The notes beneath the pieces are model-generated. The model saw only the letters and a program-made list of their open reading frames with translations. It ran no database searches and was not told the origin of the DNA. A DNA stretch of 20,000 nt from an uncultured virus (IMG/VR IMGVR_UViG_3300029922_000018) (Duplodnaviria; Heunggongvirae; Uroviricota; Caudoviricetes): IMG/VR virus record IMGVR_UViG_3300029922_000018; one strand, given 5' to 3'. This document shows, one piece after another, positions 1,826 to 14,787 of the stretch. Position numbers and translations under genes: made by a program. How positions within the stretch are numbered: position 1 is the first letter of the stretch; every line of letters starts with the position of its first letter.

Positions 1826-2326
1826 TTAAGAATTGAGAGTTTCTTTTAGTCTTGTCCCCAAGTCTTTGATATCGACGTAATCATAATTACCATCGGAGAA
1901 AGTCTTAAATTTCTCCCATACCTTATTAGCATCGTTACTTCTATGTAAGGTTGTTGATATCAACCCTTTAAATTTATGTTGTTGGGCATATTTTAATGCT
2001 GCCTTATATAATAGATATCCATATCCTTGAGATTTCACATTTGAAACTATACTATCAACAAATAGATATCCCTGCCTTCTTGGGATTTTATTGTCTAAAT
2101 CTTCTACGGGAACCCTATCCAACAATACAATTTGACCCATCATATGTTCATAGTCTTGGTCTTGAGTATATGCCCCACTCGTGTTTGAAAAGTCAGAAAC
2201 ATACATCCATATTTTAGCCCGACCCGACGATATATATTTATCATCGATTCTATAAGAAATTTTACCTTCCTTCTCTTTTTGAAAGGCTTCTTTTTCTTCG
2301 GTTAATAAATTTTTCAGTTTAATCAT
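1826..2326 (-). CDS. GNAT-family acetyltransferase with MIKLKNLLTE leader
   Basis: Motif A-like VDSIVSNVKSQGYGYLLYKAAL and C-terminal RSNDANKVWEKF. Carries the shared N-terminal leader. Confidence 0.7.
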   Translation of the reverse strand: MIKLKNLLTEEKEAFQKEKEGKISYRIDDKYISSGRAKIWMYVSDFSNTSGAYTQDQDYEHMMGQIVLLDRVPVEDLDNKIPRRQGYLFVDSIVSNVKSQGYGYLLYKAALKYAQQHKFKGLISTTLHRSNDANKVWEKFKTFSDGNYDYVDIKDLGTRLKETLNS

Positions 2327-2410
2327 ATTACTCCAACGGTCTATGTTTAAATATAAACCATAATAAAAATTTTATTCCATCAGTAAAAAATGTAATTGAT
2401 TTATATAATT

Positions 2411-2797
2411 TCATTTTGGCAATCGATACATGGACATATCATCAAATTCATCTCTCAAATACATCCCACTATTTTCAACAAACCCAAATTGTTTATAAAA
2501 TCTAATTAATCTACGAAGACCACTTGGATTTATACTGTCAGTTGCCGGTATTAAAGCCACCGGCATTTTTTTATTGTCGGCGAACTGGCATATCTCAGAC
2601 ATTATTTTTGTTCCCCAACCTTTTCCCTTGAATTGAGGCTTCATATATATGTCGGATATAAATATAGACTTGTTTTTGTCATCATAATAGAAATATAAAT
2701 CCTCAACATATTGTTTATATTTAGAATGTAATTGTCGCTCGAAACTTGAAATCTCTTGTCCGGTATTTTCAATTAATATAAATTTTAATTTAATCAT
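2411..2797 (-). CDS. GNAT-family acetyltransferase with MIKLKFILIE leader
   Basis: Acetyl-CoA binding motif IYMKPQFKGKGWGTKIM and the classic C-terminal LIRFYKQFGF. Confidence 0.85.
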   Translation of the reverse strand: MIKLKFILIENTGQEISSFERQLHSKYKQYVEDLYFYYDDKNKSIFISDIYMKPQFKGKGWGTKIMSEICQFADNKKMPVALIPATDSINPSGLRRLIRFYKQFGFVENSGMYLRDEFDDMSMYRLPK

Positions 2798-2798
2798 A

Positions 2799-5078
2799 TT
2801 ACTTTACGTTTGATTTTGAAAACCATCCAGTTCCATGTTTTTTAGACATATTATCATAATATTTCTTCGTCATACCAACTCCATCATCGGTCATCTGTCC
2901 AATTTTTGCTTTTCCAGATTTAACGTCGGGTCTTTGTTCGATGTGTTTTTCCAATAGTGCCACGCCTATTCCTCGTTTTTGGTAAGGCTCTTCCACCCAT
3001 ACACCAACTGCTCCAAATTCATTAGATGCCAATCCTATCGGCGTATTATCAATGAAGGCGGCAATTGATGTATCCTGCATAGGAAGATTAGATTCCAGTT
3101 TTTCTGCATCGGTCATCATTATAACATTTCCACCGGAGTCTCTTTTTATTTCCCCACTTTCATCATAAGCAACATACTCGTTTTTCTCACCACGCTGTCG
3201 AAATTCAACTTTAAATTCACCATATTGACCAACATCTAATAATACTGGCCATCGGGAGACATCCCCCAACCATTTTAATCCGCCCGCTTTTCTGTATTGT
3301 TTATAGGCAGTTGATGGTATATGACCAGTATAGTGATGTTTCATGAATTTATCCTTGTCAATTTCATGCGGTGATTTTTCCTTTTCCTTTTTTATTTCGT
3401 CGGCTAATTCTACAATTCTCTTTTCCAATCGACGTTTAATATATCCATCCGGTTCTTTATCCCACTCGTCTATTAAATCATTCTTTTCTTTTCTTAATTT
3501 GGACAGTATTTCATCATTTTCACATATTAAAAAATAATTTCGAATATCCTTATGCTCTTCTAAGAAGGTGAGTTTTCCTATGGTTCTTAAAAAATTATTT
3601 ATAATATCCCAAGCCGCCGCTTCATGTCCAGTTTCCAATAAATCATCAACTTCTAACTGAGTATTTAAATTTGCGTTATCATAGAATAAAGTCAATTCGT
3701 GGATGCCAACCATATCACTGGACATTACTTCATCCATTTCTATATTTTCAAACAATAAAGATTTTAATTTAATATGTCGCATTTTATTTTCTTTTATACC
3801 TATTAAAGTTTCCAAATATCCAGCGACATTTTCATGTCCGGTTCTTTTTAATACAAATATAATATCATTTATGTTTCTAATCTGGACGGATTCTTTAGAT
3901 GTTGCAAATATTTGTTGTTGTTGGGAATTCAACATTTTATTATACTTGGTTATAGCATCAAATATTTCTTCATCAATCGTTCCATTGTTATACAACCGAG
4001 TATATTCTTGCGGTGGAATTGCTTGTTGTAAAATTTCTAATACTCCATCTATATTTCGTTGATTATGAGCGTAGTCGACATCGATTTGCTCTAATGTATC
4101 TTTAATTTTAGGTTCATTTCCCATATCATTTAAAGATCGTCTTAAATCTTCATTATCTCGAAAATATCCCAAATCATCAACGTCACCACCACTTATTAAT
4201 TGTTCCCATACGAATGATTTAGCCAATTCATCTAGTTTGTCGGTATCTAGTCCATATCCATTAGCAATAACTTTAAAATCATTCAGTGAACTTACACTAT
4301 CTTCCAATTTATATTCTCGGTTAAGGTTATCAACATATGATTTCCAAATTGAGTCGGTTCCTTCATTTTTTACAAATTCGTCTATCAACATTGCGTCATA
4401 TTTATTTTTTCTTGATTCAGGATCATCTGATGACATATAATTTTCAATGGCTTCTTGAACGTATTCAGGCCACTGATATTCTCCATCACCAATCATATTA
4501 CTATAACTTATGGTATTATCATTTTTTTCATAAACGGTATAATCGCCGTTAGAATCTCCAGTTATAGCATATTTTTGATTATCTCGTTTATCCAGTAATA
4601 TTATAATGGTTTCTTTATAGTAATAATTATTCCACCACTTTTCACTGGCAACAATACACCACTTCGTATTATTTCCGTAATAGGCACAGGACTCATGAGT
4701 TGTTGGAGCGACAATTAGGAATTCCTCATCGTCAAGTATCATATTAGCCCCTTCACGAGTTTTTTCTTTATTGCTCTTTACACGAGTTGATAAGGCAAGT
4801 TTTAAATCATTATATGATTTTAATTTGTAAATATCCCTAAGAGAGGCTTGATATTTATCAAATTGATTAACATCTTTTAATAAATCTTCTATATCGGTAT
4901 TTGGTTCTGAACTAGCAATTTTTCCTATCCAGTCTATATACTTTTTATTTGAAGATGGGTCATTTAGAATAATTCTTCTTCGTAATTCCGGTTGCAACAT
5001 TTCATATTTCTTATTGAAATCTTCTATACGACCTTCTAATAGAATGTCTTCTAATAATAATGTTTTTAATTTAATCAT
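2799..5078 (-). CDS. 759-aa multidomain protein: N-terminal leader, conserved phage domain, internal second leader, C-terminal GNAT domain
   Basis: Starts MIKLKTLLLE. Contains a conserved-looking SCAYYGNNTKWCI segment. Internal MRHIKLKSLLFE at aa 433-444. C-terminal VWVEEPYQKRGIGVALL...QMTDDG is GNAT motif A. Confidence 0.75.
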   Translation of the reverse strand: MIKLKTLLLEDILLEGRIEDFNKKYEMLQPELRRRIILNDPSSNKKYIDWIGKIASSEPNTDIEDLLKDVNQFDKYQASLRDIYKLKSYNDLKLALSTRVKSNKEKTREGANMILDDEEFLIVAPTTHESCAYYGNNTKWCIVASEKWWNNYYYKETIIILLDKRDNQKYAITGDSNGDYTVYEKNDNTISYSNMIGDGEYQWPEYVQEAIENYMSSDDPESRKNKYDAMLIDEFVKNEGTDSIWKSYVDNLNREYKLEDSVSSLNDFKVIANGYGLDTDKLDELAKSFVWEQLISGGDVDDLGYFRDNEDLRRSLNDMGNEPKIKDTLEQIDVDYAHNQRNIDGVLEILQQAIPPQEYTRLYNNGTIDEEIFDAITKYNKMLNSQQQQIFATSKESVQIRNINDIIFVLKRTGHENVAGYLETLIGIKENKMRHIKLKSLLFENIEMDEVMSSDMVGIHELTLFYDNANLNTQLEVDDLLETGHEAAAWDIINNFLRTIGKLTFLEEHKDIRNYFLICENDEILSKLRKEKNDLIDEWDKEPDGYIKRRLEKRIVELADEIKKEKEKSPHEIDKDKFMKHHYTGHIPSTAYKQYRKAGGLKWLGDVSRWPVLLDVGQYGEFKVEFRQRGEKNEYVAYDESGEIKRDSGGNVIMMTDAEKLESNLPMQDTSIAAFIDNTPIGLASNEFGAVGVWVEEPYQKRGIGVALLEKHIEQRPDVKSGKAKIGQMTDDGVGMTKKYYDNMSKKHGTGWFSKSNVK

Positions 5079-5479
5079 TGATAATCCTTTATATCAATAA
5101 ATGTAGAAGAAGGGATTATTCCCTTATATATAAAAGGTCTAAAATCTTCATCCTCATGAGCAATAACATTGGGGTCAACATCAAATTTAGAAATATCTAA
5201 TTTTGAAGTATCAATCGAAATAATAACAATTTCATCAAACCAATGTTCTGGAATTTTAGGGTTTTCACTTACCTCAATAAATGAACCAGCCGCATTCTCA
5301 TCTTCAGCAAGATAAACTCCTGACTCGATACCTTCGAAATTATGTAGAATTTCATCATCTTTTGGAAGCAATCCAAGTTTTTGTATTCTTGGTATTAACG
5401 CATTAAACGTGGCATGATACAATACCGGAGGAATTGGTTTATGTAGTGCTTCTGTTAATAATGATTTTAAAAGTATCAT
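5075..5479 (-). CDS. ADP-ribosyltransferase-fold / Tpt1(KptA)-like NAD-binding protein with MILLKSLLTE leader
   Basis: LYHAT...RIQKLGLLP...GVYLA...YKGIIP resembles the H-x-T / GL / V-Y-L pattern of the Tpt1 C-terminal NAD domain and related ART domains. Confidence 0.6.
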   Translation of the reverse strand: MILLKSLLTEALHKPIPPVLYHATFNALIPRIQKLGLLPKDDEILHNFEGIESGVYLAEDENAAGSFIEVSENPKIPEHWFDEIVIISIDTSKLDISKFDVDPNVIAHEDEDFRPFIYKGIIPSSTFIDIKDYQ

Positions 5480-6228
5480 AGCGTAAAAAAGTAATGAATA
5501 TCTGAGATAGTATCATAGGCAAATATAAATCTAGACCCTTCTCCAAATTCAAAGTCATCTGGATTTCTTGATAAATGAACTCTAAACAACTTGTATTGTT
5601 TAGGAATACTATTTTCCATTATCTTATCGATAAATTCTAATTTAGTAAGGGGAGTGCTATTTTCAATTGCCTGTGCCATTTCAGTGGCATCACTAAATAA
5701 TTGACCGCTATCCAATATAGTTCGACAATCCCCACAAAAAAAATACTTTTCATTAAATCCAGTTTCTTCCGATAATTCATTGCCCGTTTCACTTTCCGGA
5801 TAAAAAAGAGTGATGGGGCGAATAGGACCAAATTTTGAACTTACCCATCTCTGCCAAATTATACTTTTGCTTTTATCTTCTAATACTTGTTTTTGTGCCT
5901 TGGTTGGCTCATTCCCTTCGACAAAAATCTTATTATTCCAAGGAACTTTTACAACTCGCATCCATCCCTTTGCGAATGCTTGTTCACACATTGCGGCGGA
6001 TGCTTCATCGAAATCAAAACTTTTATCTGTATTCGCATTCTTAAAAACCTGTTTTACTAAAGCATTATTTACCCCGAAAAGCGAGTTGTTATCGGCAACA
6101 TATAACCCATGCTGTGTATCGTTAGTGTCATATACTGTCCCATCTTTATCCAACCAAATCAAAATTGCATTAATTTGAGTTACATTTTTTAATGTATTTT
6201 CAGTTAATAATGATTTAAGTTTAATCAT
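5476..6228 (-). CDS. Hypothetical protein with MIKLKSLLTE leader, probably two domains
   Basis: 250-aa ORF with ATGA coupling to the next gene. N-terminal domain WLDKDG...HG...KGWMRV, an acidic linker NELSEE, then a C-terminal domain starting YFFCGDC. Confidence 0.7.
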   Translation of the reverse strand: MIKLKSLLTENTLKNVTQINAILIWLDKDGTVYDTNDTQHGLYVADNNSLFGVNNALVKQVFKNANTDKSFDFDEASAAMCEQAFAKGWMRVVKVPWNNKIFVEGNEPTKAQKQVLEDKSKSIIWQRWVSSKFGPIRPITLFYPESETGNELSEETGFNEKYFFCGDCRTILDSGQLFSDATEMAQAIENSTPLTKLEFIDKIMENSIPKQYKLFRVHLSRNPDDFEFGEGSRFIFAYDTISDIHYFFTL

Positions 6229-6313
6229 ATTATTATAAATATCAAGTCTTTGAAGCTAAATGCGCCTTAATTAAATCTAAATATTCCTCTTTAGTAGTAT
6301 TGGGATTTTCAAG
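6226..6313 (-). repeat. Diverged 88-bp direct repeat, copy 1 (cca 3' end + TATTTATA + next ATG)
   Basis: Encodes LENPNTTKEEYLDLIKAHLASKT* followed by TATTTATAATAATATG. Collinear without gaps with 7682-7769. Confidence 0.8.
6234..6241 (-). promoter_or_regulatory. TATTTATA motif 5 nt upstream of ATG 6228
   Basis: Recurrent intergenic octamer. Confidence 0.5.
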
Positions 6314-7684
6314 TTGTTGGTCTTTAACCAAATCCAATAGTTCTTTGAATAAAGGGCCTTGCTTCAATCCCAAATCCATTAAATCTTTCCCCGTCACTGG
6401 CAACTTAGCATTTTTTGCTGGAATGGTATTTTTTAACTTTTCTATACGAGAACGTATATTAGGTATTTGGTTTGGCATGGTATGACTTCCCTCGTGCGAA
6501 GCATTGTCAGCCTCCATGACATCAAGCATAGTTTCTAAATGGTCTCCTAAATCAACTGAAAATTTTCTAAGTGTTTTGTCCGTGGCGACCTCACCATCAT
6601 CACCCGCTCGTTTCAATCTCATATGATTAGCAATCCCGACAACTACTGCATCAATAATATCAGTTGGGTATTTTAATCGGGTTAATATATCTTTCGCCAT
6701 TTCACTTCCAACTTTCTCATGTGCGTAAAAATGAACTTCCCCATCGATGACAGTTTTTGTCTTCGTTTTTCCGATATCATGTAGGAGCGAAGTCAGCCTA
6801 TTTAATAATTCTGGCTTTGTTTTTTTCATTACCTCAATAGAATGCATCCATACATCAGATTTATGATATTTATTTTGCCCTAGTTTATATGCCGCTTTAA
6901 ATTCTGGTATTATATAATCCAATAGTCCCACTATCTTTAATAATTTTAATGCCTTTTCTGGTCGAGTAGTAACCAACATTTTATTTAATTCCGATTGAAT
7001 TCGTTCTGCCGATATATTTTTTAGTTCCCCCGCATTTCTTTTTAATGATTTTATTATGTATAGCGGAATTTCATGTCCATATTTTGCATAAAATCTTACA
7101 ATTCTCAGTTGTCTAAGCGGGTCATCTTTGAAAGTTTTATCGGGGTCTATTGGAGTTCTTATTATTCCATTTTTTAAATCGTCCATTCCCTTCCCCGTCA
7201 AATCTAATATTTCTCCGGTAGATATATTTTTATATAATGAATTGTAGGTTATGTCTCTTCTCTCCGCATCTCCTTTTAATGTAGTCGATTGAACTTCTGG
7301 ATGTCTAGACCCAACCGTGTATTTTTCAGACCGAGGCATAACCGCCTCAATCTCAAATCCGTTTAAATTTATTCCATTATGCGTTATTCCATTTAAATTA
7401 AATTTACTAGTTCCAAATTTTTCAAATGTAACTGGGTTTGAATGTTCTTTATAATTTCCGATTTTTTTCGTAATCCAATTGGAAAATAATATTCCTCCAT
7501 TTTCTTTATCGATAACTATATCCAAGTCCTTGGCATCCCGGCCTGAAATTTGGTCTCTGACGTATCCTCCACAAGCATAAACGAGTCCATCCCACTCAGT
7601 TCCTTTTATAATTTGCTTTATAAAATCTTCGGCGGTTTCTTCTAATTTCCCTTCCAAAAGGATTGATTTCAAACTTATTCTCAT
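6242..7684 (-). CDS. cca: tRNA nucleotidyltransferase (class II CCA-adding enzyme) with HD domain and MRISLKSILLE leader
   Basis: GGYVRD, DLD metal-binding motif, RRDITYN, DDPLR template motif, SAERIQSEL, and HD-domain motifs DVWMHS and LLHDIGK. Confidence 0.92.
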   Translation of the reverse strand: MRISLKSILLEGKLEETAEDFIKQIIKGTEWDGLVYACGGYVRDQISGRDAKDLDIVIDKENGGILFSNWITKKIGNYKEHSNPVTFEKFGTSKFNLNGITHNGINLNGFEIEAVMPRSEKYTVGSRHPEVQSTTLKGDAERRDITYNSLYKNISTGEILDLTGKGMDDLKNGIIRTPIDPDKTFKDDPLRQLRIVRFYAKYGHEIPLYIIKSLKRNAGELKNISAERIQSELNKMLVTTRPEKALKLLKIVGLLDYIIPEFKAAYKLGQNKYHKSDVWMHSIEVMKKTKPELLNRLTSLLHDIGKTKTKTVIDGEVHFYAHEKVGSEMAKDILTRLKYPTDIIDAVVVGIANHMRLKRAGDDGEVATDKTLRKFSVDLGDHLETMLDVMEADNASHEGSHTMPNQIPNIRSRIEKLKNTIPAKNAKLPVTGKDLMDLGLKQGPLFKELLDLVKDQQLENPNTTKEEYLDLIKAHLASKT

Positions 7685-7769
7685 ATTCTTATAAATATTA
7701 AGATTTGGAGGATAAATAAGATTTTATTATATCTAAATATTGTTCTTTACTTGTATTTTGATTTTCAAG
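7682..7769 (-). repeat. Diverged 88-bp direct repeat, copy 2 (immediately upstream of cca)
   Basis: Encodes LENQNTSKEQYLDIIKSYLSSKS* followed by TATTTATAAGAATATG. Confidence 0.8.
7690..7697 (-). promoter_or_regulatory. TATTTATA motif 5 nt upstream of the cca ATG
   Basis: Recurrent intergenic octamer. Confidence 0.5.
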
Positions 7770-8258
7770 TTTTATGTTTACAATCATATTTAATATATAA
7801 ATACAATCAATAGATGATAAATTATATGGGATATCTGATATTGTGAGTGGAAATGTTACTTTACCGCCTCGCCCAATGTTAAACCTGCGGTCATTATCAA
7901 TATATACTCCGGCTTCTTTCAATACTCTTTGTATAGGATAGGAAGATAATTTATAAATGCCAAATCCTGATAGGACTAACGCTATAGATTCTGGAGTTAT
8001 TATTTTATATAAATTACATATTACGTCAATAACCTCGCTTGATAGTTTTATTTTCATCTTTTCCGACTCCTCCGGACACTTCCTTCCTCGGTTCCACGCA
8101 GGTCTCCCTTTACTGGATGCTGAAAGATTTCGTTTGTGTTCTTCGGTAAATATACATCCCAACTTTGCTTTGCTTATTTTACGTCCCGCTAATCGAAGTA
8201 TTTCTGGGTTATTTTTTATAGTAATTGTTCTAGATTTTATGACTTTATCATAAATTTT
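7698..8258 (-). pseudogene. Degenerate NUMOD3-type DNA-binding ORF (homing endonuclease remnant) ending in a copy of the CCA enzyme C-terminus
   Basis: The frame is open from 8258 and reads RKISKAKLGCIFTEEHKRNLSASSKGRPAWNRG (NUMOD3-like). There is no in-frame ATG at the 5' end, and the coupled ATG at 8251 reads only MIKS*. No nuclease motif is visible. The C-terminal 23 aa match the cca C-terminus. Confidence 0.5.
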
Positions 8259-8631
8259 CTACGGTTCCGGTTAATGATATACCATTTTCGACTGGTTGCC
8301 AATTTATTATATTATTGCTATCAACGGCCTTGGCTCCCGCAGATTTGTTAATTGCTAGTGTAATATGTGGTATTTTATTGGTAGAATGGTATCCTTCAAC
8401 TTTAACGGCAAATGCCTTATCATCTTTTCCAATTGCCACCACTTTTAATGTGACTGGAGTTCCTGTATTATCTACTAATTTCCCAAAAGATATCGTCATG
8501 TGATGAGCAATTACAAACCATCCATCAGGTATTTCTGATTTATAGGTTTCCAATAATAAATTTCTAGATTTATCATCTAACAATACTGCCGAATATGTTG
8601 GCTTTTTGAGTAATTCTTTTAATTTTATCAT
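8248..8631 (-). CDS. 2H phosphoesterase (2',3'-cyclic phosphodiesterase-like) with MIKLKELL leader
   Basis: Two HxT motifs, AHHMTI and PHITLA, plus N-terminal YSAVLLD, as in the CPDase domain of tRNA-ligase-type RNA repair proteins. Confidence 0.82.
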   Translation of the reverse strand: MIKLKELLKKPTYSAVLLDDKSRNLLLETYKSEIPDGWFVIAHHMTISFGKLVDNTGTPVTLKVVAIGKDDKAFAVKVEGYHSTNKIPHITLAINKSAGAKAVDSNNIINWQPVENGISLTGTVENL

Positions 8632-8957
8632 AACGTTTCTTCAAATTTTATAACTCTCGTAGAATATATATCGCTCATAATAAAATCAATTGCATCCAAC
8701 GGCAACCAAACTTTCAATACTGCAACTTTATCTTCTGGAGTATTGTGATATGTTGATGCTATTTGCTTAGAATATTCAGGTCTAAGCGAAAAATAAGTTT
8801 TAGACTTAAATCCATTTAATTTTATAGATTTTAAGTTTTTGATGGGAGTTCCGTGATATGCCAAGAGTCTATTATGTTCGACAATTCCTTTATGTCTAGA
8901 AATCCAGTCGGCTCTATATTCTTCAGCAGACTCTAATAATGTCATTAATTTAATCAT
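8628..8957 (-). CDS. Small ART-fold protein with MIKLMTLLE leader
   Basis: LAYHGT...SIKLNGF...TYFS...A..Y pattern typical of ART/NAD-binding domains. Confidence 0.6.
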   Translation of the reverse strand: MIKLMTLLESAEEYRADWISRHKGIVEHNRLLAYHGTPIKNLKSIKLNGFKSKTYFSLRPEYSKQIASTYHNTPEDKVAVLKVWLPLDAIDFIMSDIYSTRVIKFEETL

Positions 8958-10096
8958 AACTGTTTTATATATTTTATTGGTATAGTGTGGTTTATTATCA
9001 ATGTATAGGGCGACATATCCGACGGTATTTCCGCATTAAAATCAATTTCTAAAGTCGACCCAATATATTCATGTATTAAATACTCCGAAACCTCTGGTTC
9101 ATATTCGGCGTTTAATTCCGGTATATTATTTTCCAGTTTAAATCTCGGCAAGTCTATCTCTAAACAAACGTCACCATAAGTTCCATCTTGATATTCTTCT
9201 ACGTTTACAGTTGTAAATATTCCATATGCGCCTCGGTTATTAATTCCAGTTCCATAACTACCAACCATTTTGCCAGAGGTCTTAATCAATTCTAATTTTT
9301 CAGGTGTTGTATAGTGATATACCTTAATTGGGTTATTTTTAAAATCCTTTAGAGTTGACTCTAAAACCCTACTGTAAATAATGTCGACATCAACTTCCAA
9401 TTCCTGCTCGGCTCTGTCATATATCCACTGATGTATATCTTTTATAACATCGAAAGTTTCATTTTCTTTATTGTGAATTAACCATACCGTATTTTTATCA
9501 TCCGTTAACTTTACAATTTTTTCCTCGAAATACGTATCATATTGTAAATCAAATCTCTTAATCAATTTTGAAAGTTCTAACTTTAAACATTCATAATCGA
9601 AATGGTCTATATATTCTTGCCAATCATCCCATTTATCAGAGTCTTCCGGATACATTTCTTCACGTTCTTGGTCAGTTATTTCGGATATTTTCTTAGGTAA
9701 TACCAACTTATTTTTAACAACATCACCCGGAGCATTTTCAATTTTTTCCGCTTTTAACATCTTTATTTGTTTTGGAGACATCACGAAACAATCAAATCCT
9801 CTATCATTGGGTAATATTGCGCCATCATACCCTTCTCGCTCTAATTCCCAAAGTCCAAGAGAAGAATACTCTCTCCAACCGGCCGGTTTATTAAATGTTA
9901 TTTCAGCCGTAATTATAATTCCCTTTCCAGCAGCACCAACGTCTCCATTTACAATATTTTCTTTTTTTGAAGTAAACCAAATAAGTCCCTGAACAGATTT
10001 TTTTAAACTAAACTTCCTAAACTTTATATTAGTTCCATGATACACCACAAGTTTAGTAGGAGTAACATTTTCCAATAATGACTTTAATTTAATCAT
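8954..10096 (-). CDS. Protein with two ART-like domains and MIKLKSLLE leader
   Basis: N-terminal VVYHGTNIKFRKF...IWFTS...GYDG...SPKQIK resembles the ART of polyvalent proteins. C-terminal VYHYT...GIFTT...YG...IPIKYI is a second ART-like unit. Confidence 0.65.
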   Translation of the reverse strand: MIKLKSLLENVTPTKLVVYHGTNIKFRKFSLKKSVQGLIWFTSKKENIVNGDVGAAGKGIIITAEITFNKPAGWREYSSLGLWELEREGYDGAILPNDRGFDCFVMSPKQIKMLKAEKIENAPGDVVKNKLVLPKKISEITDQEREEMYPEDSDKWDDWQEYIDHFDYECLKLELSKLIKRFDLQYDTYFEEKIVKLTDDKNTVWLIHNKENETFDVIKDIHQWIYDRAEQELEVDVDIIYSRVLESTLKDFKNNPIKVYHYTTPEKLELIKTSGKMVGSYGTGINNRGAYGIFTTVNVEEYQDGTYGDVCLEIDLPRFKLENNIPELNAEYEPEVSEYLIHEYIGSTLEIDFNAEIPSDMSPYTLIINHTIPIKYIKQL

Positions 10097-10463
10097 ATAT
10101 AGATACGTCTTCTATGTTGATGTCGTATAAATTATTAAATTTAATATAATGTTTCAATGTTCCTTTTGAAAATTCATAAGGAATTCCATTCAAACTTACC
10201 CAATGATGAGTCATCACATCAATTACTTCTTCATCTTCACTGCTATAAAATGGTTCATCTGTTTTAATATGTCCGAAATGTTTTTTAAATTGTGGAAATT
10301 CCGATATTATTGATGAGACTATACCCTGACAATCACCCAACCTCTGATGGTCTATAAACTCATTCCACGACGAATATCCCTCATATTCATATAATGAGTA
10401 TTTCACTCTTTCCAACAAATCCGGAATAGGCTGCTCCGTTAATAATGATTTTAATTTAATCAT
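10089..10463 (-). CDS. Cys-His (transglutaminase/papain-like) hypothetical protein with MIKLKSLLTE leader
   Basis: GDCQGIV helix-start Cys and HHWV strand His, followed by YEFS. Confidence 0.5.
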   Translation of the reverse strand: MIKLKSLLTEQPIPDLLERVKYSLYEYEGYSSWNEFIDHQRLGDCQGIVSSIISEFPQFKKHFGHIKTDEPFYSSEDEEVIDVMTHHWVSLNGIPYEFSKGTLKHYIKFNNLYDINIEDVSIYD

Positions 10464-11032
10464 TTTAAATGTGGCTGAATAAAGGTTTTAAAGAATATTT
10501 TATTTCTTCCCAAATCAATTTTATGTCCGGCCCCAGTTGTAACTGTTCTTTTATATTCTTTAGACACGGTTTTCCAGTCATTTGTTAATACGGCTCTGAC
10601 AAAATGTGGAAATTTATGTAAAGATCCAAGATTAAACGCAAAATCAATCAACATCTCCTCCTTGTCCTGTTCTAACTGTGGAATCTGAACTTTAAACATA
10701 CTCTTAATATCATGATAGACAATCTGTTTAGCAATTCCCAAATCATTAATTAACAACTGTTCAGCTTCCTTGTCGGTTAATCCATTACTATAATTACCAC
10801 CCCGTCCCCCAATTTTATGTCCATATCCTACAGTTGGAGACCCACCTTCTACTGATGGATATGGATAAAATTTTCCATTTTTATATCCGGTATGATTGTT
10901 ATTTTCAACTTGCTTCATATAATTAATGAGGGTTGACGAAAAATGTCCTCTAGATTGATGTTGAATATGTGCCGGTGGAACGTCTAATGCCTCAAGCATA
11001 ATGATTTTATAAGTTAATTTATCAATTTCCAT
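10460..11032 (-). CDS. Phage lysozyme (GH24 / T4-lysozyme-like muramidase)
   Basis: QVEN...YPSVEGGSPTVGYGHKI...AEQLLINDL...LIDFAFNLG...FPHFVRAV..W motifs. Start MEIDKL at 11032 is preferred because a TATTTATA motif lies 9 nt upstream. Confidence 0.85.
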   Translation of the reverse strand: MEIDKLTYKIIMLEALDVPPAHIQHQSRGHFSSTLINYMKQVENNNHTGYKNGKFYPYPSVEGGSPTVGYGHKIGGRGGNYSNGLTDKEAEQLLINDLGIAKQIVYHDIKSMFKVQIPQLEQDKEEMLIDFAFNLGSLHKFPHFVRAVLTNDWKTVSKEYKRTVTTGAGHKIDLGRNKIFFKTFIQPHLK

Positions 11033-11041
11033 AGTATAAGG

Positions 11042-11049
11042 TATAAATA
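11042..11049 (-). promoter_or_regulatory. TATTTATA motif at the head of the leader-tagged gene array
   Basis: Lies 9 nt upstream of ATG 11032, in a divergent intergenic region. Confidence 0.55.
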
Positions 11050-11108
11050 TATTGATGTCAACCAATTATTTAAATTAAAATAAGTTGATGTTTTGTTGTT
11101 TCTTGATA

Positions 11109-11116
11109 TATTTATA
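11109..11116 (+). promoter_or_regulatory. TATTTATA motif upstream of the RHH / endonuclease / gp13-like genes
   Basis: Divergent partner of the 11042 motif. Confidence 0.5.
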
Positions 11117-11138: not shown

Positions 11139-11300
11139 ATGAATGATACATTAAAAAAAGCCCAAAAAAAATATATGAATAAAAAAATGATGGAGGGCTG
11201 GCGGCATGTTCGGGTATTTATTCCAGTCGAATTAAAATTTAAATTATTGAAGTTCAAAAATGATATGATGAAAGAATATTATGAGAAATTTAAATCCTAA
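11139..11300 (+). CDS. Small basic protein, likely ribbon-helix-helix DNA binder (53 aa; not in the ORF track)
   Basis: Manual translation: MNDTLKKAQKKYMNKKMMEGWRHVRVFIPVELKFKLLKFKNDMMKEYYEKFKS*. It has an alternating beta-strand then a helix, is preceded by TATTTATA, and overlaps the endonuclease start. Confidence 0.55.
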   Translation: MNDTLKKAQKKYMNKKMMEGWRHVRVFIPVELKFKLLKFKNDMMKEYYEKFKS

Positions 11301-12072
11301 AACGAGAATTTCAAAGAAAGAGAAGTCGGAAAAGATTTGGTTGGAAAAATATGGAGTTATTAATCCGTTTGCTAATCCAGAAATAATAACTCAATTACAA
11401 GAAACCAAATTTAAAAAATATGGGAGTAAATATTACAACAATAGAATAAAGGCCAATGCTACATGTATAGAAAAATATGGGGTGAGTCATCCATCACAAA
11501 TTCCGTCGGCACTAAAACAAAGAACAAAAACTAGGACTCATAAATTTCTAAATTCAATTTTTAATGGAAATAGATTGGGGAATCTGATTGCACCTCTCTG
11601 GACAAGAACTCAGTTTATAACTGTTCAAGAAGAATATCCGTTTCAATGTATTAAATGTAAAACGGTATTTGATGATAATCTCGAAGATGGGAAGATTCCC
11701 AAATGCCCTAAATGCTTTAAACAGAACAACATATCAAAGATGGAAATAGAATTTTTAGATATATTAAAAATAACCAGTCGACAGAAATATATAACTCCGT
11801 TCAAAGTTGATGGTATACAGAACAATAAAATATATGAATTTCTAGGTGATTATTGGCACGGTAATCCCAATCGATTTAATCATTCTGACATAAATAAAAA
11901 GAATAAAAAATCATATGAGGTTTTATATAATAATACAATTTCTAAATTTAAATCATTGTTTGATAGAGGTTATACTATTTATTATATGTGGGAAGCTGAT
12001 TATATGCAGTGGAAGAAAACTAAGAAACTTCCATTCCCACTTAAAATTTTTAATTCAGATAAACTAATATGA
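11281..12072 (+). CDS. Putative free-standing homing endonuclease (KYGV repeats, Zn ribbon, Vsr/DUF559-like PD-(D/E)xK domain)
   Basis: EKYGV/KKYG repeats, CIKC...CPKC, and KVDG...YEFLGDYWHG...YMWE. Confidence 0.75.
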   Translation: MRNLNPKTRISKKEKSEKIWLEKYGVINPFANPEIITQLQETKFKKYGSKYYNNRIKANATCIEKYGVSHPSQIPSALKQRTKTRTHKFLNSIFNGNRLGNLIAPLWTRTQFITVQEEYPFQCIKCKTVFDDNLEDGKIPKCPKCFKQNNISKMEIEFLDILKITSRQKYITPFKVDGIQNNKIYEFLGDYWHGNPNRFNHSDINKKNKKSYEVLYNNTISKFKSLFDRGYTIYYMWEADYMQWKKTKKLPFPLKIFNSDKLI

Positions 12073-13235
12073 TAGATAACGAACAAATACGATGGCCGGG
12101 TAGCGGAAGTCTAAATGTAGACTCATTAACCGTATTTGGCTCTTATTCAGGGGATGCTCAATTTCAAAAAGATTGTGCTTCGGCAGCAAAATGGGCGTGT
12201 TTTAGACTTGGATACCCGACGGTCGATGTAGAATTGCGGGATTCTCAATTATATCCTGCATTTGAAGAATCGTGTAATACTTACAATGCAAAAGTTAATG
12301 AGTATAACATGATAAATAATATGTTAGCCCTTCAAGGACAAAGTAAGTCATCAATGGGAAACTTAGCCGGTAAATTACCAGCCACCACCGGATTGCAACG
12401 CCTAACTATACTAGCAAGAGATTATGGAAGTGAAGCTGGTAGTGGTGGTAATATTGACTGGAAGAAATTTAGAGTTCAGGTAAATGCCGGGCAACAAGAT
12501 TACGATTTACAAGAACTTATAGGAAATGTAGAGAATTGTAATAGAATTGAAATTAAGAAAATATTTCATGATAGACCACCAGCCTTTGCTAGAATATATG
12601 ATCCGATGTCAATGACTGGAATGAGTTATTCTAATGTATTAACAGAGCTAGGATTTGGAGCATACAGTCCAGCGGTGCAATTCTTAATGACTCCTATATT
12701 TGAAGACTTACTTCGTGGCCAAGCAATCCAATTTAACGATTTGGTTAGAAAAAGTGCCTTTTCATTCCAATTAATCAATAATAAACTTCGATTATTTCCA
12801 ATTCCGACGTTTCATTATGATTGTTGGGTAGAATATACGACCGACCAAGATAAACTAGAAAGTGATGCATTAGTCGGAACTGGGTCTGACATAGCAACCG
12901 ATTTTGCCGATATCCCATATCAAAACCACAAATACTCAGATATTAATGCGCCGGGGAGACAGTGGATACGAAATTACTTTTTGGCAAACTGTAAAGAAAT
13001 TCTGGGGAGTATAAGACAAAAATATCAAACCGTTCCGATTCCTGGTTCTGAAGTTGCTATGGATGGTGCTGAATTGAGAAGTGAAGCTGCCCAAGAAAAA
13101 ACATTACTAATGGACAATCTCAAAGAAATGTTGGAACAAAGTGGTAAATTTGCACAGATGGAGAAAATGGCAGCATTTAACCAACAAATTCAAGATAATT
13201 TTAAAAGTGTTCCTATGGTAATTTATTCGGGATAA
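12069..13235 (+). CDS. Neck / head-completion protein (T4 gp13-like)
   Basis: RLGYPTVDVEL..SQL N-terminal motif and WIRNYFLANCKEILG..R.KY..VPIPG.EV.MDG..L C-terminal motif. Lies in a structural context. Confidence 0.8.
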   Translation: MIDNEQIRWPGSGSLNVDSLTVFGSYSGDAQFQKDCASAAKWACFRLGYPTVDVELRDSQLYPAFEESCNTYNAKVNEYNMINNMLALQGQSKSSMGNLAGKLPATTGLQRLTILARDYGSEAGSGGNIDWKKFRVQVNAGQQDYDLQELIGNVENCNRIEIKKIFHDRPPAFARIYDPMSMTGMSYSNVLTELGFGAYSPAVQFLMTPIFEDLLRGQAIQFNDLVRKSAFSFQLINNKLRLFPIPTFHYDCWVEYTTDQDKLESDALVGTGSDIATDFADIPYQNHKYSDINAPGRQWIRNYFLANCKEILGSIRQKYQTVPIPGSEVAMDGAELRSEAAQEKTLLMDNLKEMLEQSGKFAQMEKMAAFNQQIQDNFKSVPMVIYSG

Positions 13236-14787
13236 TTTCCCATTCAAATTTAATAGTTCCACAGTCCCAAATTCTATCATATCCATTTAATTTCATATTT
13301 TCCCATTCCGAAATGTCTGGGTTAAATGTTTTCAATTTTTTATGTAACTCCGATTTTCTAAAATTAAATCTATACAACCTTTTAGTATGGTCTTTCATAT
13401 AGAAATAGTTTGGGGAGGACGTTGATAGTTTTTTAAATCCTATCTTCTCATATAAATTTCCAACACTCCATCGCCTATCAGCATATGATATAACTCTTTT
13501 TGGCATATATAATTTTACAAAATGAGCGTATAATTTTCCTGCCGCTCCAACCACTGAATAATTCAATTTAGAGCAAAATCTATATAATTCGTAATTATCT
13601 TCCAAAGATTTACTTCCCATACATTTTCTAAGTCCTCCGAATGTCATTGTAGATACCAATTCATTATTATAATATAATCCTAATTTAATATTGCTCAAAT
13701 CCTTACCCTGAATATGATTAATATCAAGAAATACCGAGCACTCTTTACTAGGTATTATCCTAACTTCACATTTTCTAGCATATATTACATTAGTTGATTT
13801 GTGTAATAGAGACTTTAACCTGCTTTTAACAATATCTTTTTTAGAATTCCACTCATCCTCAAATATGTGAATTAACTGAATTCCTTTACATGCACATTCG
13901 AGGGTTTTATTTAAATGATATTGTTTAGATATACCTCCACTTATTTCACCGTGATAATATAATCCATTAAATTCAATCGCTAAATTTTTAGATGGCATAT
14001 ATATGTCTAACTCTTTTCCATTTAATACTTTTCTATCGTTTATTACTATATCAATAGATAATGATTTGATGAATTCTTGAATTTCGGACTGTGCCAGTGA
14101 AGTTGACGGCGGATAACAAGTATAACATCGAGGAATTCTTCCATCTTGTAAATGACTATCAAATTCGTGATTACACAATTTACATTTCCATTTATGTTCT
14201 AGTTCAACTCCACAATATTCTTCTTTTGTAAAGAGGGGAACTACTTCTTTATATCTATCATCCGTTAAAAATCTCTCATATAATATTTCTAAATTGCGTT
14301 TTATAATTACTGGAGATTGATTTGGATGTTCCGTCCCATATTTCTTTAAATTTGTCTGTTTAATTTGTTCTTTAGTAGACTCCAACTTCAAATTACAATC
14401 CACTCCAAAGTGAGATAAATAAGTTTCTTTCTTTTTATTTTTAATTTCCTGTGCTTGAGAAATATTCTTAACCCCATACTTTTCCATTGTTGTTTTTTCT
14501 TTTGATTGTTGTGCCGCTCGATTGTGGCAAGTATAAGAACATCTATAAGAAAATCCCTTATTAATATGTATAAATTTACAATCTTTTCCGCAATTAGGGC
14601 ATATTCCTAAATTCTTATTGTCTATGTTAATATACCGATATAATTTTTCAGGAAATCTGCTTCCTTTAAAATTAACATTGATGAAATCATAGAATTCTCG
14701 ATTACTCGATTTTATCATTCGACCGAAATTAAATGGATTTTTTTTAATTAAATTGACCAATTCTTCGGGTGTTAATTTCTTACTCAT
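13213..14787 (-). CDS. Putative homing endonuclease (Zn fingers, KYGV repeats, Vsr-like nuclease, C-terminal GNAT-like domain)
   Basis: CPNC...CSYTC, KYGV repeats, CKLC...CYTC, ELDIY...AIEFNGLYYHG...IHIFEDEW, then YARKC...NHIQG...ELYRFC...SYADRRWS.GNLY.K.GF. Confidence 0.8.
   Translation of the reverse strand: MSKKLTPEELVNLIKKNPFNFGRMIKSSNREFYDFINVNFKGSRFPEKLYRYINIDNKNLGICPNCGKDCKFIHINKGFSYRCSYTCHNRAAQQSKEKTTMEKYGVKNISQAQEIKNKKKETYLSHFGVDCNLKLESTKEQIKQTNLKKYGTEHPNQSPVIIKRNLEILYERFLTDDRYKEVVPLFTKEEYCGVELEHKWKCKLCNHEFDSHLQDGRIPRCYTCYPPSTSLAQSEIQEFIKSLSIDIVINDRKVLNGKELDIYMPSKNLAIEFNGLYYHGEISGGISKQYHLNKTLECACKGIQLIHIFEDEWNSKKDIVKSRLKSLLHKSTNVIYARKCEVRIIPSKECSVFLDINHIQGKDLSNIKLGLYYNNELVSTMTFGGLRKCMGSKSLEDNYELYRFCSKLNYSVVGAAGKLYAHFVKLYMPKRVISYADRRWSVGNLYEKIGFKKLSTSSPNYFYMKDHTKRLYRFNFRKSELHKKLKTFNPDISEWENMKLNGYDRIWDCGTIKFEWEIIPNKLP

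Follow-up and report, generated by a model that had tools for sequence, protein, structure and literature searches.

Why should a CCA-adding enzyme, a 2H phosphoesterase and a protein of the ADP-ribosyltransferase (ART) fold, encoded close together in an uncultured tailed phage, begin with nearly the same ten residues? The genes lie at positions 5075-8631 of a stretch of 20,000 nucleotides (the window), which is the final 20 kb of the 42,886-bp viral contig IMGVR_UViG_3300029922_000018. An earlier note on this DNA had claimed that the three open reading frames (ORFs) cluster and share an N-terminal leader, and that the phage may deliver them as pre-made tRNA repair enzymes. The clustering and the shared leader were borne out. 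Both coordinates are exact ORF borders on the minus strand, 5075 being the end of an ORF of 134 amino acids (aa) and 8631 the start of one of 127 aa, and a scan of the entire contig revealed the leader MIKLKxLLxE on ten consecutive minus-strand ORFs (window 1826-10463). The other 34 of the 44 ORFs called on the contig do not carry it. The leader resembles the capsid-targeting and protease tag of phage T4, and by this analogy the delivery of pre-made enzymes is the best reading of the locus. We lean, by a modest degree, towards regarding it as a T4-type internal-protein locus that has been enlarged and carries, among its cargo, a tRNA 3′-end repair pair.

The interval 5075-8631 contains five ORFs, two of which (250 aa and 154 aa) were absent from the earlier note. 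Its features, with the evidence in brackets, are as follows.

8248-8631, minus strand: 2H phosphoesterase of 127 aa (HxT motifs, fold, PF08302 near the cut-off)
8602-8631, minus strand: leader of the 2H protein, MIKLKELLKK (codon and logo comparison)
7698-8162, minus strand: leaderless remnant ORF of 154 aa (duplicated 3′ end of the CCA gene; no family match)
6242-7684, minus strand: class II CCA-adding enzyme with a C-terminal HD(IG) domain, 480 aa (Pfam, PHROG, NCBIfam, PDB)
7652-7684, minus strand: leader of the CCA enzyme, MRISLKSILLE followed by G, 11 residues with a terminal I-L-L-E (leader comparison)
5476-6228, minus strand: leader ORF of 250 aa, MIKLKSLLTE (leader scan)
5075-5479, minus strand: ART-fold protein of 134 aa, leader MILLKSLLTE (fold match to the NAD lobe of Tpt1/KptA)

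The shared leader and the T4 head tag

The leader was compared across 33 ORFs from the window and the loci of four relatives. The resulting logo reads M1 I2 K3 L4 K5 x6 L7 L8 x9 E10. I2 is found in 32 and L4 in 31 of the 33 sequences, position 7 is Leu or Ile and position 8 hydrophobic in all of them, and positions 4, 7 and 8 are hydrophobic throughout. A Glu stands at position 9 or 10 in 30 of the 33, after which the conservation ends. In a wider set, [LIV]-x-E occurs within the first 12 residues of 63 of 66 leader ORFs versus 32 of 137 other ORFs. The leaders of the CCA enzyme (ILLE), which has one extra residue, and of the 134-aa protein (LLTE) both fit an L/I-x-E site. A degenerate DNA pattern for MIKLK gave seven matches in the contig and the reversed control pattern none. 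The leader codons differ synonymously from gene to gene (CTG/CTT/TTA, ACC/ACA/ACT/ACG) and the DNA upstream of the leader-gene starts is not conserved between genes. Thus, selection appears to act on the leader peptide and not on the DNA.

The leader also behaves as a part separate from the domains that follow it. In the structure models of both the 134-aa and the 2H protein it is of low confidence and lies outside the fold; in the former, residues 1-9 have a predicted local distance difference test score (pLDDT) below 50. Distant relatives of the 2H protein are leaderless and begin at the domain itself (MYSAVVLD...), so that the leader is best described as a modular addition. Two further distant 2H relatives (P0066 and P0067 in alignment A2) have signal-peptide-like N-termini in its place, which suggests secreted bacterial versions. 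Matches of the CCA enzyme to the related loci L009-L011 and L004, whose proteins are leaderless at this point, begin only at query residues 15-19. Four fused forms and one polyprotein (L005, L009, L022, L004) have an [LIM]-x-E site immediately before the CCA domain, the sites being LIME before G, LIME before A, LLME before R and MLNE before A. The leaderless CCA orthologues in L010 and L011 start about where cleavage would leave the others.

In T4, the capsid-targeting sequence is made up of residues 1-10 of the internal protein IPIII. Passages of PMC9026906 assign residues 4 and 7 to targeting and residues 8 and 10 to processing, place the cleavage site of the protease gp21 after L/I-X-E, and suggest that the tag may be the route by which T4-like phages recruit varied proteins into their heads. 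The internal proteins of T-even phages have been described as diverse defence proteins with only the targeting tag in common (PMC3012670). In the T4 record, IPIII and IPII both begin MKTYQEFIAE before A, gp22 begins MLKEQLIAE before A, and the genes follow one another as nudE, e (lysozyme), ipIII, ipII. The order in the window is lysozyme and then the leader array. The window lysozyme gives a weak BLASTP match to the T4 e lysozyme (E 0.004) and its N-terminus, ..KLTYKIIMLE before A, resembles a T4-type leader; the lysozyme opening the array may itself be head-loaded. In L009 a fusion of NUDIX and lysozyme domains (L009:6944-7957) begins MFTYKNFFNE, with five of ten residues identical to the T4 sequence MKTYQEFIAE, and is followed by 14 leader ORFs.

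The array thus shares several traits with the T4 proteins IPI, IPII and IPIII, and with Alt: an N-terminal tag of about ten residues on otherwise unrelated proteins, conservation of positions 4, 7, 8 and 10 with L/I-x-E at the tag end, a locus that adjoins the lysozyme gene and a Nudix gene or domain, cargo that varies between relatives, and an S77 protease, here encoded in relatives. It differs in the tag itself (MIKLKxLLxE instead of MKTYQEFIAE), in having ten tandem genes where T4 has two or three, and in the cargo. The T4 cargo consists of small DNA-associated or anti-restriction proteins, whereas that of the array comprises sizeable enzymes (CCA-HD, 2H, ARTs and GNATs) that are putatively packaged.

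The processing enzyme was sought in 15 related records. Peptidase_S77, the T4 gp21 type, was found above the Pfam cut-off in five of them (G004, G005, G008, G011 and G012). Both the protease and MIKLK-type arrays are present in G005 (250.8 kb) and G008 (279 kb). The gene immediately upstream of the protease in G008 begins with the leader MIKLKELLNV; in G005 the leader MIRLKNLIKIQE lies four codons inside the called ORF, again immediately upstream of the protease. Neighbouring head genes carry related N-terminal peptides ending in L/I-R-E, comparable to the start of T4 gp22 given above. Two large contigs that encode a kinase-2H protein with a second type of leader, MKxxIKxILRE, encode an S77 protease as well. 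By analogy with T4, the tagged enzymes are probably injected ready-made together with the DNA. The delivery suggested in the earlier note therefore remains the best reading, given the T4-like tag positions, the L/I-x-E site, the locus order and the protease of the relatives.

Alternatively, the leader might be a translation-start or expression element, a protease or turnover tag, or a tag for another location, with the enzymes acting in the cytoplasm late in infection. The A/T-rich codons of the leader (ATG ATT AAA TTA AAA) can favour initiation, and the array genes overlap as ATGA, which is consistent with coupled translation. Leaderless CCA orthologues occur in the same gene neighbourhood, and packaging is itself a deduction. 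On the other hand, the conservation reaches positions 7, 8 and 10 despite the synonymous codon changes, and the leader is confined to the array genes and missing from the 34 other ORFs. It is also present on the gene beside the prohead protease in two relatives, the four positions critical in the T4 tag are conserved in it, and the array occupies the place of ipIII and ipII of T4. We consider a role of the leader other than packaging quite unlikely.

The CCA-adding enzyme and the 2H phosphoesterase

The 480-aa protein matches the Pfam families PolyA_pol (head, 3.3e-19), PolyA_pol_RNAbd (1.4e-14) and HD (3.6e-9), and the tRNA nucleotidyltransferase PHROG (5e-57). With 32.0 bits, its HDIG domain exceeds the cut-off of 27.6. 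The best NCBIfam match is the CCA family TIGR02692, which covers the full length at residues 35-469 (3.8e-66) with a score of 223.6 bits, below the equivalog cut-off of 438.8 and hence short of equivalog-level membership. The match to the CCA1 structure 9ns2 in the PDB (2.8e-31) aligns the GGxVRD, DxD, RRD and DDPLR stretches. The catalytic head motifs, the RNA-binding neck and the HD motif of class II CCA enzymes with an HD domain are all present, and the product is predicted to be a complete, divergent enzyme of this type. It shares 51% identity with a segment of the 735-kb uncultured phage LR756501.1 and 52-92% identity with seven IMG/VR loci. No tRNA genes were found in the seven loci scanned for them; the CCA gene is therefore not explained by neighbouring tRNA genes. 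In the LR756501.1 segment (L004, positions 134887-176257, reverse complement) the CCA domain forms the C-terminal end of a 1179-aa protein with a cytidine-deaminase-like start, punctuated by repeated DPYGEE[DER]W linkers. Many ORFs of this segment carry another leader dialect, for example MIKKYIQFINE or MDKYNNFINE, each before A.

The nucleotidyltransferase might instead be a poly(A) polymerase or another RNA-tailing enzyme, injected in order to destabilise host RNA. Class II CCA enzymes and PcnB share the head domain, the sequence alone would allow for CCA, A-adding or poly(A) specificity, and partial NCBIfam matches to PcnB reach 1.2e-30. These matches cover only residues 135-272, as opposed to the full-length match of TIGR02692 at 35-469. 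The closest solved relatives are CCA1 and CCA2, and the HD domain is present, as it is in the NCBIfam model for multifunctional CCA addition and repair, which is also matched. PcnB enzymes are not known to have an HD domain. We regard an RNA-tailing function as highly improbable.

Upstream of the CCA gene, the last 32 codons of the 154-aa remnant, together with the stop codon, a 13-nt spacer and an ATG, are a second copy of what is found at the 3′ end of the CCA gene. Of the CCA gene itself, about 95 nt are duplicated (window 7698-8162 and 6242-6345). The remnant and the CCA C-terminus are identical at 16 of 32 positions in BLASTP (E 4e-9), with a mean column identity of 83% in the DNA alignment. 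No family was matched by the remnant in Pfam or PHROGs; its N-terminal part presumably resembles the DNA-binding motif of a homing endonuclease. The duplication looks like the scar of a cassette exchange or a homing event.

The second enzyme of the pair is encoded by the 127-aa ORF. Its two motifs, H44-x-T46 and H89-x-T91, are invariant in all 31 aligned relatives. The structure model (pLDDT 93.7) superimposes on the catalytic domain of CNPase with a Z score of 13.1 and a root-mean-square deviation (rmsd) of 2.3 Å over 119 residues, and on the kinase-CPD (cyclic phosphodiesterase) part of fungal Trl1 (6u05) with a Z score of 11.1. The score is 7.5 against Acb1 and about 6 against LigT. The fungal tRNA-ligase CPD family PF08302 gives 22.3 bits on the window protein, just under the cut-off of 23, and is passed by relatives, for instance by the protein in L036 with 27.2 bits. 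By motifs and fold the protein is a minimal 2H phosphoesterase of the CNPase/Trl1-CPD clade. CNPase-type enzymes open 2′,3′-cyclic phosphates to 2′-phosphates, and the PDB titles of the CNPase-type matches include 2′-AMP complexes. The earlier note had named a role on other substrates, as in Acb1, as a possible refutation. The anti-CBASS nuclease Acb1 is likewise a small phage 2H protein with two HxT motifs, but its fold match is weaker and the window 2H family is fused to kinase and CCA domains. Assignment to Acb1 was rejected since PF23474 (Acb1) does not match the window protein at E values up to 10 and the fold score is 7.5 versus 13.1 for CNPase. The 2H protein thus falls outside the Acb1 family.

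The association of the two enzymes was assessed beyond the window. The 2H family was detected in 293 viral stretches, of which the best 80 loci were kept, containing 64 distinct 2H ORFs. Eleven of them share their ORF with a CCA domain, and a further 25 have a CCA gene within 10 kb in the same locus, six of these at a distance of 10 bp or less. Fusion to a P-loop kinase, in the order found in Trl1, was seen in at least 16 of the 64. The architectures confirmed with Pfam are CCA plus CPD, 2H plus CCA plus HAD_SAK_1 ("Swiss Army Knife RNA repair"), and kinase plus CPD. In L022 a single protein of 863 aa contains, in this order, a leader, a LigT-type 2H domain, a module of the 134-aa family, a relic internal leader and CCA-HD. 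Giant polyproteins of 1300-2000 aa with C-terminal CCA plus 2H begin MTYDEF..., close to the T4 tag. A second lineage uses the leader MKxxIKxILRE: in L052 and L088, with 32 ORFs each, only the CCA enzyme and the kinase-2H protein carry it, and in L062 and L089 the same tagged pair is accompanied by one more ORF. Such proteins of about 310 aa, in which a P-loop kinase (AAA_33) precedes the 2H domain and which begin MKxxIKxILRE, are common in large phage contigs (L036:9425-10363, L052, L062, L088, L089 and about 25 further loci). The linkage claimed for the window is therefore also seen elsewhere. Fusion, adjacency and co-tagging in a second lineage imply that CCA and 2H form a set, and the kinase and CCA domains fused to members of the 2H family suggest that it acts on RNA ends.

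The pair is reminiscent of the healing module of fungal and plant Trl1. The 2H protein is closest to CNPase and to the Trl1 CPD, many of the phage relatives keep the order of kinase and then CPD, and an ART of the Tpt1 lineage is encoded nearby in the window. In contrast to the Trl1 module with Tpt1, the window contains neither ligase nor kinase, its Tpt1-like protein has no RNA lobe or catalytic residues, and the preferred partner of the phage 2H protein is a CCA enzyme.

The ART-fold protein and the remaining cargo

The 134-aa protein had been put forward as a Tpt1-like repair enzyme. Its model (pLDDT 81.9) retrieved Tpt1/KptA structures as all of the top 17 PDB matches listed by Foldseek. 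Residues 11-131 align with residues 85-177 of the 177-residue Tpt1 of P. horikoshii (Z 11.6, rmsd 2.1 Å, 91 residues aligned), and the family profile matches 6e3a at chain residues 93-140 with an E value of 2.6e-4. The NAD-binding ART lobe of Tpt1 is thus present. The N-terminal lobe, which binds the RNA 2′-phosphate, is absent, as only about 10-13 residues, the leader, precede the alignment to Tpt1 residue 85. The catalytic tetrad of Tpt1 is Arg-His-Arg-Arg, and three of its four residues would fall in the missing lobe. The family alignment contains no invariant or nearly invariant Arg, nor does the family have a counterpart of the Arg in the GRQYVHL segment of 6e3a; the tetrad is accordingly missing. 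The residues that are invariant in the family are H22, A23, T24, I32, G36, E72, D102, P103 and Y118. PF01885 (Tpt1) scores 13.3 bits on the protein versus a cut-off of 26. Identification as a canonical Tpt1/KptA 2′-phosphotransferase was rejected because there is neither an RNA lobe nor a tetrad.

The family comprises 987 representative clusters at E values up to 0.001, and its fusion partners were counted by Pfam in 55 long members. The partners are GNAT (four members), lysozyme or cell-wall hydrolase (two), zeta-type kinase (two), weak Tpt1 (two), and ParB, Toprim, ART-PolyVal, peptidase M91, three DUF families and CCA-HD (one each); in 37 of the 55 no Pfam family was found. This promiscuous pattern would fit a module of polyvalent proteins and not a dedicated repair factor. 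We take the 134-aa protein to be a separate ADP-ribosylating effector and not a 2′-phosphotransferase. Of the tRNA end-repair set originally proposed, the CCA and 2H pair stands, and the repair role of the Tpt1-like member is not supported.

The array further encodes two GNAT-type proteins, three ART-like proteins (the 134-aa protein included) and two proteins without assigned function. The features outside 5075-8631 are listed below.

10460-11065, minus strand: lysozyme gene, the first of the array locus (Pfam Phage_lysozyme, 1.6e-10)
10089-10463, minus strand: leader ORF of 124 aa, MIKLKSLLTE (leader scan)
8954-10096, minus strand: leader ORF of 380 aa with an N-terminal ART-PolyVal and a C-terminal domain (PF18760, 9.3e-10)
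8628-8957, minus strand: leader ORF of 109 aa, ART-like, with an AYHGT motif (weak PARP match, E 0.0062, below the cut-off)
2799-5078, minus strand: leader ORF of 759 aa with a second in-frame leader (leader comparison)
2411-2797, minus strand: leader ORF of 128 aa, GNAT acetyltransferase (PF13508, 2.4e-7; PF00583, 1.2e-6)
1826-2326, minus strand: leader ORF of 166 aa with faint GNAT similarity, the last array gene (PF00583, E 0.012)

The 124-aa ORF matched no family in Pfam, PHROGs, NCBIfam or PADLOC, and the 250-aa ORF none in Pfam, PHROGs or NCBIfam, with no usable match in the ESM Atlas. PADLOC gave only faint Cas3-HD matches for the HD domain of the CCA enzyme and none for the other proteins. 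In the 759-aa ORF, the second leader MRHIKLKSLLFE is found at residue 433 (window about 3741-3782). The ORF looks like two fused cassettes, which may be re-separated by the protease; its orthologue in L005 retains a degraded copy of the leader, HIKLKDLLLRE. Residues 250-377 of the 380-aa ORF share 36% identity with L009:15076-15621, which matches PF01885 (Tpt1) at E 0.0016, below the cut-off, and comparison of this C-terminal part with PDB sequences gave chance-level matches only. A recent common origin of the three ART-like ORFs as paralogues was rejected by comparison with the profile of the 134-aa family: on the 380-aa ORF only the leader and the YH(G/A)T strand aligned, and the 109-aa ORF gave no significant match.

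A gene for a tail sheath of 1065 aa lies directly downstream of the array on the same strand. Elsewhere on the contig there are genes for a T4 gp19-like tail tube, a T4-type baseplate hub and a head-tail adaptor-like protein, and many homing endonuclease genes. This gene content marks the phage as a large myovirus built in part from T4-type components. In cluster records, the identical proteins are also listed on a contig of 168,489 bp. Homing endonuclease genes of the phrog_3339 / DUF7487 type, at least six of them counting partial copies, are interspersed between structural genes in the 42.9 kb, for example at window 11281-12072 (plus strand) and 13213-14787 (minus strand); they occur at several places in L001 and L003. 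Upstream of the window, adjoining the tail tube gene, L001:9556-12876 (contig coordinates) encodes a leaderless polyvalent-type protein of 1106 aa, in which two ART-PolyVal domains are combined with an adenylate-cyclase-N-like nucleotidyltransferase region. The T4 late-promoter motif TATAAATA was found 12 times versus 5.8 expected, a number reached in three of 200 shuffles, and one match (11109-11116) precedes the lysozyme gene in the right orientation. The excess is too weak to demonstrate late transcription, and scans for sigma-70 promoters and terminators were uninformative.

The diversity of the array raises a further explanation: the tag serves packaging, but the three proteins are unrelated cargoes of a mixed effector array and carry out no concerted repair. 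The 2H protein would then destroy nucleotide immune signals or act as an RNase, the ARTs would act on host proteins in the manner of T4 Alt, and the only task of the CCA enzyme would be to mature tRNAs of the phage or the host. The array does contain GNATs, other ARTs and unassigned proteins, a LigT/Acb1-like 2H protein is a separate cargo in L009 (PF23474, 4.4e-9), and the 134-aa family is fused to GNAT, lysozyme, ParB, Toprim and zeta-kinase domains but to CCA in only one of 55 members. Passages of PMC5512222 state that the 2H domains of polyvalent proteins are never found beside RNA ligases and propose RNase or signal-degrading roles for them. Against independent cargoes, the 11 fused and 25 nearby CCA genes among 64 2H ORFs are far above what a mixed bag would give, a P-loop kinase is joined to the 2H domain, ordered as in the kinase-CPD module of Trl1, in at least 16 of these ORFs, and the window 2H protein has no Acb1 match in Pfam at E 10 and resembles CNPase (Z 13.1) more than Acb1 (7.5). 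Unrelated cargoes without a joint function are, in our view, unlikely.

Polyvalent proteins are multi-enzyme effectors predicted to be delivered with the DNA (passages of PMC5512222). The window locus resembles them in this predicted delivery, in its repertoire of ART-PolyVal, GNAT, 2H and lysozyme, and in that its relatives fuse the same modules into polypeptides of 700-2000 aa; fused polyvalent-like forms occur in L005, L009, L022 and L004. It differs in that the modules are separate genes with one leader each, and the three window proteins do not have the many domains typical of the class. The term 'CCA-adding' was not found in PMC5512222 by a term search.

A proposed tRNA repair kit carried in the head

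The following sequence of events is proposed on the model of T4. The leader would attach the protein to the prohead's scaffolding core, like the T4 capsid-targeting sequence, and the gp21-type (Peptidase_S77) prohead protease would clip it after the Glu of L/I-x-E. The mature proteins would remain in the head and exit with the DNA at infection. In the infected cell, the 2H esterase would open the 2′,3′-cyclic phosphate left by a metal-independent RNase, giving a 2′-phosphate and a 3′-OH, the HD domain of the CCA enzyme would strip the remaining phosphate, and the nucleotidyltransferase head would rebuild the CCA end. Translation capacity would in this way be restored before the expression of any phage gene. 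Damage and repair of the CCA end as a translational switch have a precedent in eukaryotes (a passage of PMC3757041). In its general form the proposal is that T4-like phages of several lineages pre-load their capsids with a kit of CCA/HD enzyme and cyclic-phosphate esterase by means of lineage-specific tags and undo host tRNA-directed abortive infection before phage gene expression, the cassette array recruiting any enzyme that gains the leader. We put this general form forward tentatively, as a possibility to which we give somewhat less than even weight.

Several points weigh against a packaged repair pair. The window's own 42.9-kb contig contains no head genes and no protease, and therefore the link to the protease rests on the relatives. 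In ten of the 15 related records searched S77 did not exceed the cut-off; nine of these ten are IMG/VR fragments with an estimated completeness of 4-54%, and the tenth, the 735-kb LR756501.1, gave sub-threshold matches only. The leader of the 2H protein, MIKLKELLKK, has no Glu at position 9 or 10, its sole L-x-E being L4-K5-E6, and that of the L009 orthologue (MIKLKEIISQ) has none there either. In T4, an Asp at position 10 of the tag blocks processing and keeps targeting (passages of PMC9026906). By analogy, the 2H protein may be targeted yet not clipped at position 10. The CCA orthologues in L010 and L011 are leaderless though they lie in the same structural-gene neighbourhood, and the tag is therefore not needed for the function of the enzyme. 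The best 80 of the 293 2H loci lean towards relatives of the window lineage, and the fusions in the array lineages (L005, L009 and L022) may be neutral cassette mergers, as the relic leader of L022 illustrates. There is no RNA ligase or kinase within the window and, as mentioned, no tRNA gene in the seven loci. The phosphatase role of the HD domain is taken by analogy from E. coli Cca, whose HD domain has phosphatase activity. The observations themselves concern domain identities, intact catalytic motifs, the shared leader, the linkage and the protease genes of relatives, and from these we infer all the later steps.

The two halves of the proposal have been known separately. CCA enzymes, 2H esterases, KptA-type ARTs and HD or HAD phosphatases are described parts of phage tRNA repair (passages of PMC7824862). 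The window shares the CCA plus HD architecture with the RNA-repair sets of jumbo phages and with the E. coli CCA/HD enzyme; unlike the window locus, those sets are described in PMC7824862 with no occurrence of the term 'capsid targeting' in a term search. A literature search of limited coverage found no paper in which a CCA enzyme or RNA repair is tied to a capsid-targeting sequence. Fusions of CCA and 2H may already be described by Burroughs and Aravind (2016). A mass-spectrometry table for phage SU10 includes a protein with a CCA nucleotidyltransferase domain (part of PMC4281155); this entry was not accepted as evidence of packaging since it is listed among "early gene products". Phage Atu_ph07 has a tRNA nucleotidyltransferase gene, and a term search of text passages and one supplement of PMC6102473 returned no virion-proteome entry for its product. 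What is known, then, is the head tag of T4 on the one hand and phage tRNA repair on the other; what appears to be new is repair enzymes bearing a putative head tag.

As T4 shows, almost any protein can be brought into the head by a tag of ten residues, and tRNA repair is a known answer of phages to host defences that cut tRNA. If the tag works as in T4, the repair enzymes would arrive as protein and would act even when host translation has already been crippled, which, if true, would change the view of the timing of defence and counter-defence. A lineage-specific leader followed by L/I-x-E can be looked for in uncultured T4-like phages, which gives a simple and testable way of predicting the proteins that they inject. 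The array would also provide natural examples of large enzymes that pass through the tail, which would be useful for engineered protein delivery by phages in laboratory strains.

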